A stretch of DNA of 64,000 nucleotides from Anaerolineae bacterium (GTDB lineage Bacteria > Chloroflexota > Anaerolineae > UBA1429). The stretch spans positions 120,590-184,589 of the forward strand of contig JAXGNH010000010.1 in the NCBI GenBank assembly GCA_040768165.1. Reading direction: 5' to 3'. The notes beneath the pieces were generated by a model. That model worked only from the letters and a program-made list of their open reading frames with translations, ran no database searches and was not told the DNA's origin. Below, one piece after another: positions 37,284 through 64,000 of this stretch (positions are counted from its first letter, which is position 1; each line of letters opens with the position of its first letter). A program made the position numbers and the translations under genes.

Positions 37284-37386
37284 CCGATGGTACGCTGATT
37301 CCGCTGGTCGGACGCTGATCTCCGCAGGTCCAAACAAGAGAATCTGCGGAATCAGCGCTTTATCTGCGGAATCAGCGTACCATCGG
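37284..37386. repeat. Family B-variant palindrome (ACGCTGAT / CTGCGGA arms)
   Basis: ccgatggtacgctgattcc ... ggaatcagcgtaccatcgg, perfect 19-bp outer arms. Confidence 0.9.
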
Positions 37387-37405
37387 ATTCACGCAAGCAG
37401 GCGCC

Positions 37406-57651: not shown

Positions 57652-58545
57652 ATGGCTTGGAAGCCGGATAAGGCCCTGGGGCTGGGCGTGGGCCTGATGG
57701 TGGTGCTGGTCATCATCGGCATGGAGGCCTTTCTCCTGCAGAGCATGTTGGACCAGCCGCCGGGGCTAAACCTGTACGTGATGGCGTTGTTGTTCGTCCT
57801 CAGTCTCCCGCTGTTAGTGCTCTGGCTCTACTGGTACTATGGCCTGGCGACGTTGCGCTACACCATGGATCGCAACGCGCTGGTGATCGCCTGCGGCGCC
57901 AGTCGCTATGTGGTGCCGATGGAGGAGATCCGCCGCACCGTGCGGGGGGACGAGGTGTCGATCCTCCAGGGGTTTCGCGGCGTGGGATGGCCCGGCTACC
58001 TCATGGGCAGCCTGCGCCTGCGCGACCTGGGGCTGCTGCTGGTGGCCAGCACCGAGCCCGTCGAGCGGCAGCTCATCGTCGTGACCGACCGCATGTGTTA
58101 TGGCATCTCGCCGCGACAGCCGGAGCAGTTCCTGGCCGACCTGGCGGCGCGCCAGGCGCTGGGCGTGCTGCACCCGGCGGAGCAGACGGTCGAGTACGTC
58201 TCGTTCGTGGCGGCGCCCGTGTGGCGCGACCGCTGGTATTGGGCGACGGTGTTGCTGGCCTTTGTCGCCAACGCGGCGCTCTTTGGCATCATCGCGCTGC
58301 GCTACCCGACGCTGCCCGAGCGGCTGCCGCTGCACTTTGACGCCCAGGGGATGGTCGACCGCGTGGGGTTCAAGTCGGGGTTGATGGTCGTGCCGACCAT
58401 CGGGGCGCTGTCGTTGGCCGCCAACGGCGCGTTGGGCACCATCCTCCATGGCCGCGAGCGTCTGGCCGCCTACCTGCTGGCGGGCATGACGGTGATCCTG
58501 CAGGTGGTGCTCTGGGTCGCGGCGTTGGGGATCCTGGGCCGCTGA
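57652..58545 (+). CDS. Membrane protein with bPH-like middle region and DUF1648-like C-terminal module
   Basis: TM hairpin, then YTMDRNALVI (PH-like). The C-terminal RYPTLPERLPLHFDAQGMVDRVGFKS matches the DUF1648 pattern from memory. Confidence 0.55.
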   Translation: MAWKPDKALGLGVGLMVVLVIIGMEAFLLQSMLDQPPGLNLYVMALLFVLSLPLLVLWLYWYYGLATLRYTMDRNALVIACGASRYVVPMEEIRRTVRGDEVSILQGFRGVGWPGYLMGSLRLRDLGLLLVASTEPVERQLIVVTDRMCYGISPRQPEQFLADLAARQALGVLHPAEQTVEYVSFVAAPVWRDRWYWATVLLAFVANAALFGIIALRYPTLPERLPLHFDAQGMVDRVGFKSGLMVVPTIGALSLAANGALGTILHGRERLAAYLLAGMTVILQVVLWVAALGILGR

Positions 58546-58558
58546 GAACGGGGGCGAT

Positions 58559-59401
58559 GTGGGGCTGTTCCTCTTGGGCCTGGCTGCGGGGGTCGCCATC
58601 GGCCTGCTGGGCCGGCGGGCGCGCCTCTTTACCTATGGTGGCGCCGGAGCCCTTGGCGCCGTGGCGGGGGTGACGTTCTACGCCGCCGGGTGGACCTGGG
58701 GGGCGCTCCTGCTGGCGGCCGTCGCCGGCGCGGCGTTGTGGCGGCTGTACGGCGCCGCCGTCAAGCGCGAGCGCCTGGGGCCCTGCGGCATTCCCCGCGC
58801 CTGGGACTGGAGCGAGGTGCTGGCGTTGACCGGCTGGCCGGCGCTCCTAGCGGTGGTGACGCGGCTCGGGGCGGCTCCTTTCGGGTTTTACGCCGGCTTT
58901 TGCGGAGCCCTGGCCACCACGGCCGCCGACCGCTGGGCGACAGAGATCGGCCTGCTCAGCCCGCGCCCGCCGCGGCTGATCGTCAGCAGGCGCGAGGTGC
59001 GCGCCGGCACGCCGGGGGCCGTCTCCACGTTGGGCATCGTCGCGGCGGCGGGGGGCGCCTGGTTGATCGGCTTTCTCGGGATGCTGCTGCCGGTGGCGGT
59101 GGCATGGGTGCGCGACGAGCCGTGGGAGCCTGCCCTGGCGTGGCTGCCGGTGGCCGCCACGGCCGGCGGCGTCATCGGCGCCCTGGTGGACAGCATGCTG
59201 GCGGGCACCGCGCAGGCGGTGTACTATTGCGAAAAGTGCGAGCGCATCACCGAGCGGCCGGAGCGTTGCGACGGGGGGCGCGCCGAGCAGGTGCGCGGCT
59301 GGTGGTGGCTCACCAGCGACGGGATCGACCTGGTGTGCGCTATCCTGGGGGCGGCGGTCTCTGCGGCCATCGTAGGGTGGCTTGCGCCAGGTACCATCTA
59401 G
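58559..59401 (+). CDS. DUF92/TMEM19-family integral membrane protein
   Basis: GTG start. AADRWATEIG and GAVSTLG motifs. Confidence 0.65.
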   Translation: MGLFLLGLAAGVAIGLLGRRARLFTYGGAGALGAVAGVTFYAAGWTWGALLLAAVAGAALWRLYGAAVKRERLGPCGIPRAWDWSEVLALTGWPALLAVVTRLGAAPFGFYAGFCGALATTAADRWATEIGLLSPRPPRLIVSRREVRAGTPGAVSTLGIVAAAGGAWLIGFLGMLLPVAVAWVRDEPWEPALAWLPVAATAGGVIGALVDSMLAGTAQAVYYCEKCERITERPERCDGGRAEQVRGWWWLTSDGIDLVCAILGAAVSAAIVGWLAPGTI

Positions 59402-59410
59402 TGGTAGAAT
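59382..59410 (+). promoter_or_regulatory. Candidate promoter TTGCGC-17-TAGAAT
   Basis: Overlaps the 3' end of the DUF92 gene and lies upstream of the corrinoid-protein gene. Confidence 0.4.
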
Positions 59411-59491
59411 CGCGGTCACATGGGGCGCGTTTGGCGCGTCAGGTGGCGCGCGAATCGTCACCAACAGTCAAGCTCGGGGAGGACACAAGCC

Positions 59492-60127
59492 ATGGGTCAC
59501 AAGGAAACGATCTACCAGGGCATTCTAAATGGCAACATGAAGGCCGTGGAGGATGCCACCAAAGCAGCCCTGAGTGAGGCAGTGCCCGCGGGGGAGCTGC
59601 TGAACGAGGCCATGATCCCGGCGATGGCGGAGGTCGGTCGACTGTTTGAAGCCAACGAGTACTATGTGCCCGAGATGCTCATCGCCGCGCGCGCCATGAA
59701 GGCCGGCCTGGCCCTGTTGCGACCCGAGCTGGTGAAGGAAAAGGTAGAGCCGCTGGGCAAAGTGGTGCTTGGCACCGTCAAGGGCGACCTGCACGACATC
59801 GGCAAGAACCTGGTGTCCATCATGGTCGAGGGCGCGGGCTTTGAAGTGGTCGACCTGGGCGTCGACGTGGCCCCCGAAAAGTTTGTCGGTACCGCCAAGG
59901 AGCAGAACGCCGATGTCATCGGCCTCTCGGCGCTGCTCACCACCACCATGCCGAGCATGAAGAACACCATCGAGGCGGTCAAAGAGGCCGGGCTGGACGG
60001 CAAGGTCAAGGTCGTCATCGGTGGTGCACCGGTCACGCAAAAGTATGCCGACGAGATCGGCGCCGACGGCTATGCCCGCGACGCCGCCGCGGCCGCCACC
60101 CTCGTGAAGAAGCTGCTGGGCAAGTAG
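59492..60127 (+). CDS. Corrinoid (cobalamin-binding) protein, MtaC/MtbC-like
   Basis: B12-binding helical cap plus Rossmann domain. DxHxxG motif GDLHDIGKN, SALLTTTM, GGAP. Confidence 0.85.
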   Translation: MGHKETIYQGILNGNMKAVEDATKAALSEAVPAGELLNEAMIPAMAEVGRLFEANEYYVPEMLIAARAMKAGLALLRPELVKEKVEPLGKVVLGTVKGDLHDIGKNLVSIMVEGAGFEVVDLGVDVAPEKFVGTAKEQNADVIGLSALLTTTMPSMKNTIEAVKEAGLDGKVKVVIGGAPVTQKYADEIGADGYARDAAAAATLVKKLLGK

Positions 60128-60239
60128 CCTTGATCGTACGGGATGCATACAGAGGGCGCCCGGTGGGTGCCCTCTGTTCGAGAGCCTGGGGATCGATGCG
60201 AGGCCGTGGACGTGACCTGACCCTGGGGATGGAGGAGTC

Positions 60240-61265
60240 ATGCCCGATCGCGTCATTTCCCCGGCTGTGAATGCCGACGAAGCTACCCTGGAGCGTAGCC
60301 TCAGGCCGCGCGTGCTGGACGAGTACATCGGCCAGGAGCGCGTGGTCGAGAACCTGCGCGTCTTTCTCGAGGCCGCCAAGGCGCGCTCCGAGCCCCTCGA
60401 TCATACCCTGCTCTACGGCCCCCCCGGCCTCGGCAAGACGACCCTGGCGAACGTCATCGCCGCCGAGATGGGCGTGAGCATCAAGACCACCTCCGGGCCC
60501 GTCATCGAGCGGCCCGGCGACCTGGCCGCCATCCTCACCAACCTGCGCCAGGGCGATATCCTCTTTGTCGACGAGGTGCACCGCCTCAGCCACGTGGTGG
60601 AGGAGGTGCTCTACCCGGCGATGGAGGATTTTGCCCTCGACATCGTCATCGGCAAGGGCCCGGCGGCGCGCAGCATCCGCCTGAACCTGCCCCACTTTAC
60701 CCTCATCGGCGCCACCACCCGCATCGCCCTGATGACCTCGCCCCTGCGCGATCGCTTTGGCGTGATGTACCGCCTCGATTTCTACAGCCTCGAGGCGATG
60801 CGCGAGATCGTCTCGCGCTCGGCCGCCATCCTCGACGTGGCCATCGACGAGGCGGGCTGCCACGAGATCGCCAGCCGCTCCCGCGGCACGCCCCGCGTCG
60901 CCAACCGCCTGCTAAAGCGCGTGCGCGACTACGCCCAGGTGCGCGGCGACGGCGCCATCACCGCCAAGGTGGCGCGCGAGGCGCTGGAGATGCTCGAGGT
61001 GGACGACCTCGGCCTCGATAGCTCGGACCGGCGCGTGCTGCGGACGATCATCGAAAAGTTCGACGGTGGGCCCGTGGGGCTGGACACCATCGCCGCGGCG
61101 CTCAGCGAGGACGCCGATACCATCATGGACGTGTACGAGCCGTACCTGCTGCAGCTCGGCTTCCTTGACCGCACCGCCCGCGGACGCGTGGCCACCCGCC
61201 GCGCCTACGAGCACCTCGGCGTCCCAGACAACCGCGAGCAGAACGCCCAGGCAAGTCTGTTCTAG
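60240..61265 (+). CDS. ruvB: Holliday junction branch-migration helicase RuvB
   Basis: [13 protein letters not shown], Walker [12 protein letters not shown], Walker [10 protein letters not shown]. Confidence 0.95.
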
Positions 61266-61271
61266 TTAGTT

Positions 61272-61376
61272 CGATGGTACGCGGATTACGCAGATGGAAC
61301 GCTGATCAACGCAGATTATGGGGATTAGAAATCAGCGGAGATCTGCGTTGAACCAGCGGAATCTGCGTACTATCAG
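61272..61376. repeat. Family B-variant palindrome
   Basis: cgatggtacgcggattacgcagatggaacgctgatcaacgcagat ... atctgcgttgaaccagcggaatctgcgtactatc. Confidence 0.8.
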
Positions 61377-61423
61377 GCTCCCGATTCGACGTGCCTTTCT
61401 GGAAGTGAGTGCCCGATCTGAGC

Positions 61424-61795
61424 ATGGAAGCACGTGCTATCGTTCTCGACGCCGAGGGGCGTACCCTCTCGCCCTGCCCCGCGGACAAGGCGCGGCGCCT
61501 GGTGGCCCAGGGGCGCGCCGAGGTCGTCCGCGACGACCCCCTGACCATCCGCCTGACGCGCTCCGTCACCATCCCCGCGCCCACGCGTAGGGGCGACCGG
61601 CGGGTCGCCCAGGACCCTGCGCCCACGCGTAGGGGCGACCGGTGGGTCGCCCAGGACCCGGCACCCAGGCGTAGGGGCGACCGGTCGCCCAGAACCCGGC
61701 CATCGCGACGGTGGGCGACCGGCCGGTCGCCCAGGACCCGGCACCCACGCGTAGGGGCGACCGGCGGTCGCCCAGGACCCGGCACCCAGGCGTAG
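61424..61795 (+). CDS. Small ORF whose first 50 aa resemble the RRXRR/PLMP N-terminal domain of HNH/IscB-type nucleases. The remainder is translated REP array.
   Basis: MEARAIVLDAEGRTLSPCPADKARRLVAQGRAEVVRDDPLTIRLTRSV follows the pattern V.VLD..G.PL.PC.P.KAR.LL..G.A.VV...PFTI.L. The ORF then runs into 42-bp repeats and stops at a repeat TAG. Confidence 0.45.
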   Translation: MEARAIVLDAEGRTLSPCPADKARRLVAQGRAEVVRDDPLTIRLTRSVTIPAPTRRGDRRVAQDPAPTRRGDRWVAQDPAPRRRGDRSPRTRPSRRWATGRSPRTRHPRVGATGGRPGPGTQA

Positions 61796-62028
61796 GGGCG
61801 ACCGCGGGTCGCCCAGAACCCGGCCATCGCGACGGTGGGCGACCGGGTCGCCCAGGACCCGGCACCCAGGCGTAGGGGCGACCGGCGGGTCGCCCAGGAC
61901 CCGGCACCCAGGCGTAGGGGCGACCGGCGAGTCGCCCAGGACCCGGCGCCCACGCGTAGGGGCGACCGGCGGGTCGCCCAGGACCCGGCCATCGCGACGG
62001 TGGGCGACCGGCCGGTCGCCCCTACGAA
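61585..62028. repeat. Tandem array of 11 REP-like units (36-44 bp), each with hairpin GGGCGACC-N2-6-GGTCGCCC
   Basis: Two head types alternate, GCGTAGGGGCGACC and GCGACGGTGGGCGACC. The last unit closes as ggtcgcccctac. Confidence 0.95.
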
Positions 62029-62572
62029 GGTCGGCGAACGCCTGCTGCTGCACATCTGCTGCGGCCCTTGCGCGACGTACACCGTGGCCCACCTGCGCGG
62101 GCTGGGGTACGAGGTGACGGGCTACTGGTTCGGCCCCAATATCCACCCCTTCAGCGAGCACGAGCGCCGCCGCGAGGCGCTGGAGACGCTGGCCGCCGAT
62201 ATCGACCTGCCGGTGATCTGGGAGCCCGGGTATGAGATGCCCGAGTTCCTGCGCCTGGTGGCCGGCACCCCCGAGCGCCCGGCGCGCTGCCGCATCTGCT
62301 ACCGGATGCGCCTGGCGCGCACGGCCCGCGTCGCTGCGGCGGGCGGGTTCGACGCCTTTTCCACGACGCTGCTCATCAGCCCCTATCAGGACCTGGACGC
62401 CATCCGCGAGATCGGCGCGGAGGAGGGGGACGCCCAGCGCGTGCGGTTTTACTTTGAGAACCTGCGCAAGGGGTTCGCCGAGCACCATCGCCTGGCCCGC
62501 GAGCACGGGCTGTACATGCAGCGCTACTGCGGGTGCGTGTATAGCGAGTGGGAGGGGTTGCGGGGGAGGTGA
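62000..62572 (+). CDS. queH: Epoxyqueuosine reductase QueH (DUF208)
   Basis: LLLHICCGPCA, RCRICY, STTLLISPYQ, YCGCVYSE. The start is uncertain: GTG 62000 lies inside the last repeat unit, and the conserved core begins near 62040. Confidence 0.8.
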   Translation: MGDRPVAPTKVGERLLLHICCGPCATYTVAHLRGLGYEVTGYWFGPNIHPFSEHERRREALETLAADIDLPVIWEPGYEMPEFLRLVAGTPERPARCRICYRMRLARTARVAAAGGFDAFSTTLLISPYQDLDAIREIGAEEGDAQRVRFYFENLRKGFAEHHRLAREHGLYMQRYCGCVYSEWEGLRGR

Positions 62573-62622
62573 GGGACAGCCGGGGGGCCGGCGCCCCGTG
62601 GAGCCATTCTAGAGCAAAACGA

Positions 62623-62651
62623 TTGACTTGTATGTCGCCTTACCCTATGGT
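62623..62651 (+). promoter_or_regulatory. Candidate promoter TTGACT-17-TATGGT
   Basis: ttgact tgtatgtcgccttaccc tatggt. Confidence 0.45.
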
Positions 62652-62673
62652 GGATATGGGGGAATCATGACGG

Positions 62674-62707
62674 CGGTCGCGCGGCGTCGCGCGATCGTTT
62701 TTGTTTT
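62674..62707 (+). terminator. Strong intrinsic terminator (10-bp GC stem plus TTTTTGTTTT)
   Basis: cggtcgcgcg gcgt cgcgcgatcg tttttgtttt. It lies between the candidate promoter and the ABM-like gene. Confidence 0.7.
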
Positions 62708-62750
62708 GTCTGGATAGCGCGCCCAACAGTGGGCGCAAAGGGAGCGTACC

Positions 62751-63062
62751 ATGTTTGCGCGTGTTAGCCGATACCATGGGGACCCGGGGAAGGTGAAGGA
62801 GGCCTTTACCGCGCCGAGCCCCGCCGAACTCGGCCAGACCCCCGGATACCTGGGCGCCTATGTGCTGGTCGACGAAAAGAGGGGCAAGGCGATCACCATC
62901 ACGCTCTGGGAGACGGAGGAGGCGATGCACGATAGTATCGCCCTCGCCGATCGCCTGCGCCAGGAGGCCAGCGACCAGGCCGGCGGCAAGGAGAAACCTA
63001 CGTACGAGATGTACGAGGTGGTGGAGGTGCCGGAATTCGCCAAGGAGTTGGTGCGGCGGTAG
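62751..63062 (+). CDS. Small dimeric alpha/beta-barrel (ABM-like) protein
   Basis: 103 aa. The pattern GYLGAYVLVDEKRGKAITITLWETEEAM is typical of ABM/DUF-type ferredoxin-like folds. RBS AGGGAG. Confidence 0.5.
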   Translation: MFARVSRYHGDPGKVKEAFTAPSPAELGQTPGYLGAYVLVDEKRGKAITITLWETEEAMHDSIALADRLRQEASDQAGGKEKPTYEMYEVVEVPEFAKELVRR

Positions 63063-63072
63063 GTGGGGAGGT

Positions 63073-63100
63073 GTAGGGGCGACCGGCCGGTCGCCCCTAC
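63073..63100. repeat. Single canonical GTAGGG-headed REP hairpin
   Basis: gtaggggcgaccggccggtcgcccctac, a perfect palindrome. Its CTA supplies the stop codon of the radical-SAM gene. Confidence 0.9.
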
Positions 63101-64000
63101 GGTGTGAGCGTCGGAGGCCTCCCCTCATCGGCAGATGCGTAATCGCGCACGAAATCCTCGAACCCATTTCGGATGTTCTCGCGGAACGCCTGCGATACGA
63201 GCGAATCGCCGAATAGCTGGAACGACCGGCTGCGATATTGCGTGTTCAGCGTGTACATCAGTCTCTGAAGATCGACATAATCACTCACAGAGCCCTCGTT
63301 GAGTTCGAGGAATGGATAAAGCTTGCCGTTCAGCATCTCCAGCCGCTCATCCCATCCCCGCTCACGGAAAAAGCCCTCGTACTGGTGGTAGATGTCGGTG
63401 GTAGGCACTGGCGTGAAGAGCATGGGGATGCACGATCCGACCACCTCCGAGACGAACATTACCGACTTGACCACGTCGTCGATCTTTTCGTTGGGAAGGC
63501 CGTAGAGCACAAAGGCGTTCACGTCCATGTGCCGAAGGTTGAAGCCGGCGCTTTCGGCCATTCGGACGGCAGTAACGAACTGCTCTAGGGTGACGTGGCG
63601 GCGGTTGAGTTGCGACAGATGGGTTTGGTTGATCGTCTCGCAGGGCAGGTACAGCCGCTGCATGTTCGCCTGCTTGAGAAGGTCGAGCAGACGCTGCGAC
63701 TGGCTCAGGTGGCGCACGTCCAGCCCCTCCGGTGCGTACAGTCGATAGAAACGGCTGTCGGCGATGAGCGCCCCTAGGAGCCGCTGAAAGTTGCGCTCGT
63801 GATCCCACAGCAGGAAATCCGCGTAGAAGGCAAAGTCCTTGATGCCGTAGGTGTCCTGAGCGTGTTGCATCTCTGCCACGATGTCGTCTACGGGGCGATA
63901 CTCGACGTGCCGCCGCCCGCCATTGATTGTGCGCTGAGCGCAGTAGGCGCAGTTGTACGGGCAGCCCCGGGCAGGCGTGACGATGGCATAGTCCGGGGGC
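63097..64000 (-). CDS. Radical SAM protein (N-terminus beyond the window)
   Basis: The frame is open to position 64000. My translation of the last 120 nt gives PPDYAIVTPARGCPYNCAYCAQR (CxxxCxxC). GC is visibly lower than in the neighbours. Confidence 0.7.
   Translation of the reverse strand, partial: PPDYAIVTPARGCPYNCAYCAQRTINGGRRHVEYRPVDDIVAEMQHAQDTYGIKDFAFYADFLLWDHERNFQRLLGALIADSRFYRLYAPEGLDVRHLSQSQRLLDLLKQANMQRLYLPCETINQTHLSQLNRRHVTLEQFVTAVRMAESAGFNLRHMDVNAFVLYGLPNEKIDDVVKSVMFVSEVVGSCIPMLFTPVPTTDIYHQYEGFFRERGWDERLEMLNGKLYPFLELNEGSVSDYVDLQRLMYTLNTQYRSRSFQLFGDSLVSQAFRENIRNGFEDFVRDYASADEGRPPTLTP

Follow-up and report, generated by a model that had tools for sequence, protein, structure and literature searches.

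The subject of this analysis is the segment 61424-62572, on the forward strand, of a 64,000-nucleotide stretch of DNA (the window) from contig JAXGNH010000010.1 of an Anaerolineae bacterium of the Chloroflexota. This segment very probably constitutes one gene, which codes for a PLMP-like domain of about 50 residues, a flexible proline-rich linker containing a translated array of repetitive extragenic palindromic (REP) type, and the epoxyqueuosine reductase QueH; the short loops that break the frame within the array are likely to represent an error or a recent lesion. As a queH the gene is unremarkable, and what makes it unusual is that it hosts a PLMP domain and a coding REP array.

An initial annotation of this DNA had described a 50-residue open reading frame (ORF), an 11-unit repeat array and queH lying in one frame and separated by one repeat-borne TAG at 61793, and each of these features was found in the sequence. 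The small ORF (61409/61424 to 61795, + strand) has its start codon, ATG, at 61424, opens with MEARAIVLDAEGRTLSPCPADKARRLVAQGRAEVVRDDPLTIRL and terminates at the TAG at 61793-61795, which is provided by the GTAGGGG head of the sixth unit of the array, as read from the ORF and from the table of units. The QueH part is in the same frame, which is open from the codon after the TAG through 62572, and its first conserved motif, LLLHICCGPCA, starts at 62042, directly after the last unit.

The PLMP-QueH fusion

We, first, consider the relatives, in which the two parts are joined. When one genome per species was scanned for the QueH part, 80 loci were obtained, the closest 17 from Chloroflexota/Anaerolineae metagenome-assembled genomes (MAGs) and the other 63 from other phyla. 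By tblastn, the 51-residue domain was found directly upstream of queH in 14 of the 17 Chloroflexota loci; a hidden Markov model (HMM) of the domain likewise scored 14 of the 17 as positive, and all 63 from other phyla as negative. Reading of the frames showed, in every one of the 14 relatives, a fused ORF of about 245-260 residues consisting of the domain, a linker of about 15 residues rich in proline and glutamate, and then LLLHICC. A search of a protein database likewise gave more than 100 entries, 245-260 residues long, with the precomputed architecture PF14239+PF02677; the entries named by their source appear there as epoxyqueuosine reductase QueH of Anaerolineae/Chloroflexi. Since both parts form one ORF in relatives, the frame shared by the small ORF and queH is not a coincidence of G+C-rich DNA, and the fused ORFs of the relatives and of the databases identify the small ORF as the N-terminal domain of the QueH of this lineage, not as a separate gene or the remains of a nuclease. 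The association of PLMP with QueH is an architecture implicit in Pfam annotations; a literature search found no paper connecting QueH with PLMP or RRXRR. One of the 17 loci (L005), on a 3.1-kb contig labelled Thioalkalivibrio sp. (DSBO01000229.1), has a PLMP-queH that hardly differs from the one in L002, an Anaerolineales MAG, and this contig is probably mis-binned.

The PLMP-like domain, the N-terminal part of the RRXRR family, occupies residues 1-51 (61424-61576, + strand). Its match to Pfam PF14239 scores 38.2 bits, the cut-off being 25, at an E-value of 1.8e-09, and covers positions 2-45 only of the 174 of the profile. All of the 60 orthologous domains tested match PF14239, with a mean column identity of 60%. 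A profile of these 60 domains recovered the PLMP domains of IscB structures in the PDB, namely 9k30 (2e-8), 9k2z (9e-8), 9nvu (8e-7) and 7xht, 7utn, 11hx and 9liq (about 7e-4), together with a weak match to the IsrB structure 8dmb. The AlphaFold2 (AF2) model of the window's domain presents a mean predicted local distance difference test score (pLDDT) of 86, with strands at residues 4-8, 32-37 and 40-44 and a helix at 20-28. The nine best PDB matches of this model in Foldseek are all PLMP domains of IscB/IsrB, with template modelling (TM) scores of 0.71-0.81 and root-mean-square deviations (rmsd) of 0.6-1.9 Å, and IF3's N-terminal domain comes next; a likeness of the IsrB PLMP domain to this IF3 domain has been reported (PMC9581776).

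Profile search and predicted fold both show that the N-terminal domain is truly homologous to PLMP. The RRXRR/PLMP similarity pointed out in the initial annotation is thus borne out by the Pfam score above the cut-off, the profile matches to IscB structures and the Foldseek superposition. Compared with the PLMP domains of IscB/IsrB (7xht, 7utn, 8csz, 9k2z, 9k30, 8dmb), the fold is the same, with 33-41% identity over 44-48 aligned residues, whereas the domain is here joined to a tRNA-modifying enzyme instead of RuvC/HNH and has LSPC in place of PLMP. In the orthologues, the position of the motif reads (E/R)-L-S-P, where the leucine and the second proline are kept and the first proline and the methionine differ.

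The module also occurs in other settings. A word-indexed protein search with the 51-residue domain alone gave no match, and an exhaustive search of representative sequences did yield matches. These included small proteins of 66-140 residues with the PLMP-like module alone, proteins with two or three modules in tandem (three copies in P0011, of 191 residues, and three in P0001, of 674 residues), and a true nuclease-type protein with RRXRR and HNH (P0017). PLMP-like modules outside nucleases and QueH were observed in P0001, P0011, P0015, P0016, P0008, P0010 and P0019. The PLMP domain is therefore not confined to RNA-guided nucleases: across a bacterial class it is conserved within an enzyme that modifies tRNA, and PLMP-QueH offers a testable handle on the role of the domain itself, in binding RNA hairpins or tRNA, and on the evolutionary source of PLMP.

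The homology to IscB raises the question whether the 50-residue ORF stands alone as the remnant of an OMEGA element of IscB/IsrB/IshB type, degraded beside queH, as the initial annotation had suggested. We consider this extremely improbable. The domain is homologous to the PLMP of IscB, but it is well conserved and fused to QueH in more than 100 proteins, as the N-terminus of QueH in Anaerolineae-type Chloroflexota. No RuvC or HNH part follows it, the RRXRR profile being matched over positions 2-45 only; the linker and QueH come instead, and Pfam gave no HNH match. Upstream omega-RNA-like structure had been proposed as a sign of such an element, and Rfam gave no relevant match, whether to an omega-RNA/HEARO-like RNA, a riboswitch or another RNA, in window positions 58000-64000 at E<=1, nor in 12 related loci at gathering scores. 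In the relatives, ruvB adjoins the fused ORF, and because the ruvB stop and the ORF start overlap, no room is left for an OMEGA element. PLMP-queH also differs from IscB/IsrB genes in being a chromosomal housekeeping gene beside ruvB, outside any IS200/605 element and with no omega-RNA. With nuclease domains and omega-RNA both absent, membership of this locus in IscB/IsrB is refuted.

The C-terminal part (62042-62572, + strand, stop codon included) matches positions 1-173 of the 175 of PF02677, with 191.8 bits against a cut-off of 23.5 and an E-value of 1.4e-56. It contains the motifs LLLHICCGPCA, RCRICY and YCGCVY, and the corresponding HxCCxPC, CxxC and CGC columns are invariant in 101 orthologues. 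The model of an orthologue (P0029, pLDDT 92) superposes on the QueH of Thermotoga maritima (7lc5 and 7lc7) with TM scores of 0.88-0.89, rmsd of 1.7-1.8 Å and 35% identity. The sequence motifs together with the modelled fold predict that the catalytic part is an ordinary QueH epoxyqueuosine reductase. The likeness to the T. maritima enzyme thus extends to the whole profile, matched by the C-terminal 175 residues, to the cysteine motifs and to the fold. The solved enzyme, however, has 178 residues and no N-terminal domain, whereas here the PLMP-like domain and a linker precede, and in the species of the window the two domains are set further apart by a translated array of repeats, at most about 150 residues long.

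The REP-derived array in the linker

The linker carries a REP-derived tandem array of 11 units (61570-62026, + strand), delimited by a core search, by Tandem Repeats Finder (TRF), by the table of units and by comparison with alleles of the same species. There are 11 occurrences of the core GGCGACC(N0-4)GGTCGCC in 61592-62020, about zero being expected by chance, with core-to-core spacings of 42, 42, 38, 42, 41, 41, 39, 42, 42 and 42; TRF reported a period of 42 with 10.1 copies at 61573-61989. Each unit is built from a G+C stem of 8 bp, a 0-4-nucleotide loop and a spacer of about 20 nucleotides. The initial annotation had recognised the repeats and their frequent length of 42 bp, and its range of 36-44 bp is to be narrowed to 38 to 42 bp. 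When in register, the array encodes 14-residue repeats of the DPAPTRRGDRRVAQ type, with four arginines and two aspartates per 14 residues. On the coding strand, two of its three frames are free of stop codons, the frame used being one of them. As 42 bp corresponds to 14 codons and the frame used contains no stop, the array is expected to be translated, and these same properties of the unit explain why it is tolerated in the linker.

The parent palindrome, GTAGGGGCGACCGGCCGGTCGCCCCTAC, occurs as a single perfect copy at 63073-63100, flanked by an ABM-like gene and a radical-SAM gene that are convergent. In one of the same-species contigs (L081), the counterpart of this site (1660-1815) is a non-coding array of four units, again with a period of 42 bp. 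Arrays therefore expand at non-coding sites too, and the 42-bp period is intrinsic to the amplification of the repeat and not the product of codon selection. Within the 64 kb the palindrome was found at two sites, and contig ends left loose where the repeat passes into other sequence suggest that the genome has more of them. Of these two sites, the array lies inside the coding linker of PLMP-QueH and is not extragenic, and the copy at 63073-63100 is extragenic.

The state of the linker in the same species and in relatives is summarized by unit counts of about 1, 2.8, 4, 10 and 11 across strains. Two independent metagenome contigs, L081 (protein P0025) and L084, have flanks more than 99% identical to the window and were taken as alleles of the same species. 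The L081 allele, whose protein P0025 was 96% identical in a protein database search, has 4 units, each of exactly 42 bp, within one ORF of 305 residues, while L084, obtained by a metagenome scan, has 10 units, each of exactly 42 bp, within one ORF of 371 residues that reads as PLMP, ten DPAPTRRGDRRVAQ-like repeats and QueH. L082/P0026, at 84% identity, has 2.8 units in frame in a 275-residue ORF. Further away, L085 presents one diverged hairpin in the linker (CATAGGAGCGACCGGAGGGTCGCGCCT), L086 a decayed palindrome (CGTAGGGGCCACCAGCCGCCCGCCCCTAT) and L001 none. AF2 modelled the linker of an orthologue with lower confidence than any other stretch except the C-terminal tail. The in-frame alleles bear on two proposals of the initial annotation. 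A queH with a repeat-derived 5' extension, starting at the GTG at 62000, is not the general state of the gene, since same-species alleles are one ORF across the whole array. The idea of a PLMP part and a queH driven apart by REP amplification came close, except that the PLMP part is QueH's own N-terminal domain.

The array resembles the REP elements and bacterial interspersed mosaic elements (BIMEs) of Enterobacteria and Pseudomonas, which are short, G+C-rich, imperfect palindromes found singly between convergent genes and in clusters; it differs from them in the direct, non-alternating orientation of the units, in the fixed 42-bp period and in that one array lies in a coding region. Rickettsia palindromic elements (RPEs) are palindromic repeats within protein genes, which keep the frame and are translated at a tolerant site (PMC10969869). 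As with RPEs, the host ORF is open through the element, the ORFs of 305, 371 and 275 residues running through 4, 10 and 2.8 units, with the allele of the window as the exception. Unlike RPEs, the palindrome is 28 nucleotides long and the unit 42 bp instead of about 150 bp, there is no sequence relation, and tandem amplification is accompanied by variation of copy number within the species, as in a coding variable-number tandem repeat. A protein search with the repeat peptide for other translated REP arrays gave no match at E<=1e-5, for which composition filtering is the probable cause, so that this result is no evidence of absence. The locus offers a clean natural example of a REP-type palindrome domesticated as a coding linker of variable copy number, with intermediate stages kept in relatives.

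We infer the following course of events. A REP-type palindrome, GTAGGGGCGACCGGCCGGTCGCCCCTAC, would have landed in the linker codons in the ancestor of the species group; the array would then have grown and shrunk in steps of 42 bp (hairpin plus 20-nucleotide spacer) by slippage or unequal recombination, and its translation would extend the linker by an arginine-rich stretch, (DPAPTRRGDRRVAQ)n, that is probably disordered.

The interruption in the window's copy

In the window, the array section 61654-61854 (+ strand) is out of register by a net -9 nucleotides, as established from the table of units, from contigs of other runs and from a word search of a run index. Four units have short loops: unit 3 (61654-61691, 38 bp), unit 5 (61734-61774, 41 bp), unit 6 (61775-61815, 41 bp) and unit 7 (61816-61854, 39 bp), unit 4 between them having 42 bp. 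The losses are -4, -1, -1 and -3 for units 3, 5, 6 and 7, summing to -9. The loop of unit 3 (61683) throws the reading out of frame and that of unit 6 (61804), after -6 in total, brings it back, and the -3 of unit 7 is frame-neutral. The TAG at 61793-61795, 10 nucleotides ahead of the restoration of the frame, is read in frame because the preceding loop deletions shift the frame.

None of these short loops was recovered from other data. In L081 and L084, 14 out of 14 units have 42 bp and no short loop is present. Logan contigs from several metagenomes with the species have the full 4-nucleotide loop at 61680-82, 61764/5 and 61803 (units 3, 5 and 6); the loop of unit 7 is crossed by none of them. 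As these contigs break within the array and can be placed on several units, they inform on the loop forms present and not on the order or number of the units. When 31-mers of 61655-61860 were sampled, the maximal share in any indexed run was 0.44, which roughly equals the proportion of words lying clear of the short loops, and none of the indexed runs contained words crossing them. No Nanopore run containing the locus was listed in the search. Neither RuvB nor the ABM-like protein of the window has an identical entry on record. Between the window and L084, the N-terminal domain has 2 differences in 150 nucleotides and the QueH domain 3 in 549, all of the latter synonymous, and the QueH codons present no sign of decay.

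The alternative is that the window's sequence is correct and the fusion gene is split, or on its way to a pseudogene, so that a PLMP protein of 128 residues ends at the TAG and QueH is made from an internal GTG (61835 or 62000) or not at all. The TAG and the frame shifts do stand in the window, the loops contain short direct repeats, CCGGCCGG and GGCGGG for example, at which slippage could occur in vivo, the B-type units contain in-frame GTG codons, and a stand-alone QueH of about 178 residues is functional in Thermotoga (7lc5). Against this, no allele from other data has a short loop, neither among the 14 units of L081 and L084 nor in contigs of other runs; the GTG codons at 61835 and 62000 are preceded by no Shine-Dalgarno-like sequence, and a scan for promoters and terminators detected nothing within the spacer upstream of the ORF or within the array. 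Moreover, the QueH part differs from that of an intact allele only synonymously, and any inactivation would therefore be very recent. A split gene is thus a tenable, though less probable, account of the locus. We consider that consensus errors at G+C-rich hairpins, or a very recent lesion private to this copy, are more likely to explain the short loops than a normal state of the gene, and we rate an error in, or a very recent private lesion of, an intact fusion gene above an established split gene.

The array could also be regarded as a phase-variation switch, in which changes of loop length that are not multiples of 3 toggle the full-length PLMP-QueH and changes in the number of 42-bp copies tune the linker. 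The copy number does differ among same-species alleles (4, 10 and 11 units), and all frame-breaking changes lie in the loops and jointly restore the frame. We nevertheless regard such a switch as very unlikely: a single interrupted allele is known, with no support elsewhere, its four separate changes exceed the need of a simple switch, and there is no known reason for phase-varying a tRNA modification enzyme.

Several points weigh against an intact fusion gene with a spurious or recent interruption. The TAG is present in the window sequence as given. The other assemblies derive from short reads, in which arrays are possibly collapsed or rearranged, the short contigs are not assignable to a particular unit, and the populations they represent are not the same strain as the window. 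The net -9 could be a matter of chance (1 in 3) or the trace of real compensating mutations. As to the fusion itself, three Anaerolineae queH loci (L008, L010 and L016) have no PLMP-like domain, and QueH functions without it in other phyla. In IscB the PLMP domain also packs against RuvC, and by analogy it may act here as a protein-protein module instead of binding RNA. Beyond this locus, assemblies at G+C-rich hairpin arrays deserve distrust, and gene callers can be expected to split or truncate genes like the repeat-bearing PLMP-queH.

Proposed role and genomic neighbourhood

The PLMP domain of IscB/IsrB binds terminal hairpins of the omega-RNA, in a mainly sequence-independent manner, and packs on RuvC (PMC9640706, PMC9581776). 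By analogy, we infer that the PLMP domain helps QueH to bind tRNA: it would be an accessory RNA-binding module giving an extra grip on the tRNA whose wobble epoxyqueuosine QueH reduces, with the linker as a flexible tether that the translated repeat would lengthen and supply with positive charge. A broader proposal is that PLMP, known to date from OMEGA nucleases only, is a free-living, general RNA-hairpin-binding module used by cellular enzymes as well, that it tethers QueH to tRNA in the Anaerolineae, and that the arginine-rich REP array (4-11 units) and the loop frameshifts tune or switch the enzyme between strains; taken as a whole, this proposal seems rather doubtful to us. If PLMP were such a general module of cellular enzymes, this would bear on where IscB/IsrB obtained it.

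The gene immediately upstream is ruvB (60240-61265, + strand; Pfam RuvB_N, AAA_lid_4 and RuvB_C). In most relatives (loci L002-L017, for instance L002 near 3818) the ruvB stop overlaps the start of PLMP-queH (cTGATG) and there is no spacer, while in the window 158 bp separate ruvB from the ORF. This stop-start overlap suggests translational coupling of a recombination gene with a queuosine gene, and PLMP-queH would be transcribed together with ruvB. The linkage is reminiscent of the ruvAB-queA-tgt arrangement in Bacillus.

The spacer of the window contains an imperfect palindromic element of about 100 nucleotides (61273-61374, no strand assigned), an inverted repeat (I1) with 45-nucleotide arms that are 76% complementary. 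It belongs to a second repeat family, with a second copy at 37287-37387 and the termini GATGGTACGC...GCGTACCATC, and diverged versions of it are located at the same place in L081/L084 and in L082. An upstream 'peptide' (YHHGCLRAVP...) that seemed conserved in relatives was rejected: it is ruvB's 3' end translated in a different frame and not a structured RNA.

Upstream of ruvB, the ORF at 59420-60127 resembles a protein with a cobalamin-binding domain (motif DLHDIGKNLV); L082 has the same neighbourhood, and there the record of the corresponding ORF lists PF02607/PF02310. On the minus strand, two long ORFs of 258 and 377 residues (61306-62506) cross the array and queH; they are not genes and are explained by the high G+C content together with the palindromic units.

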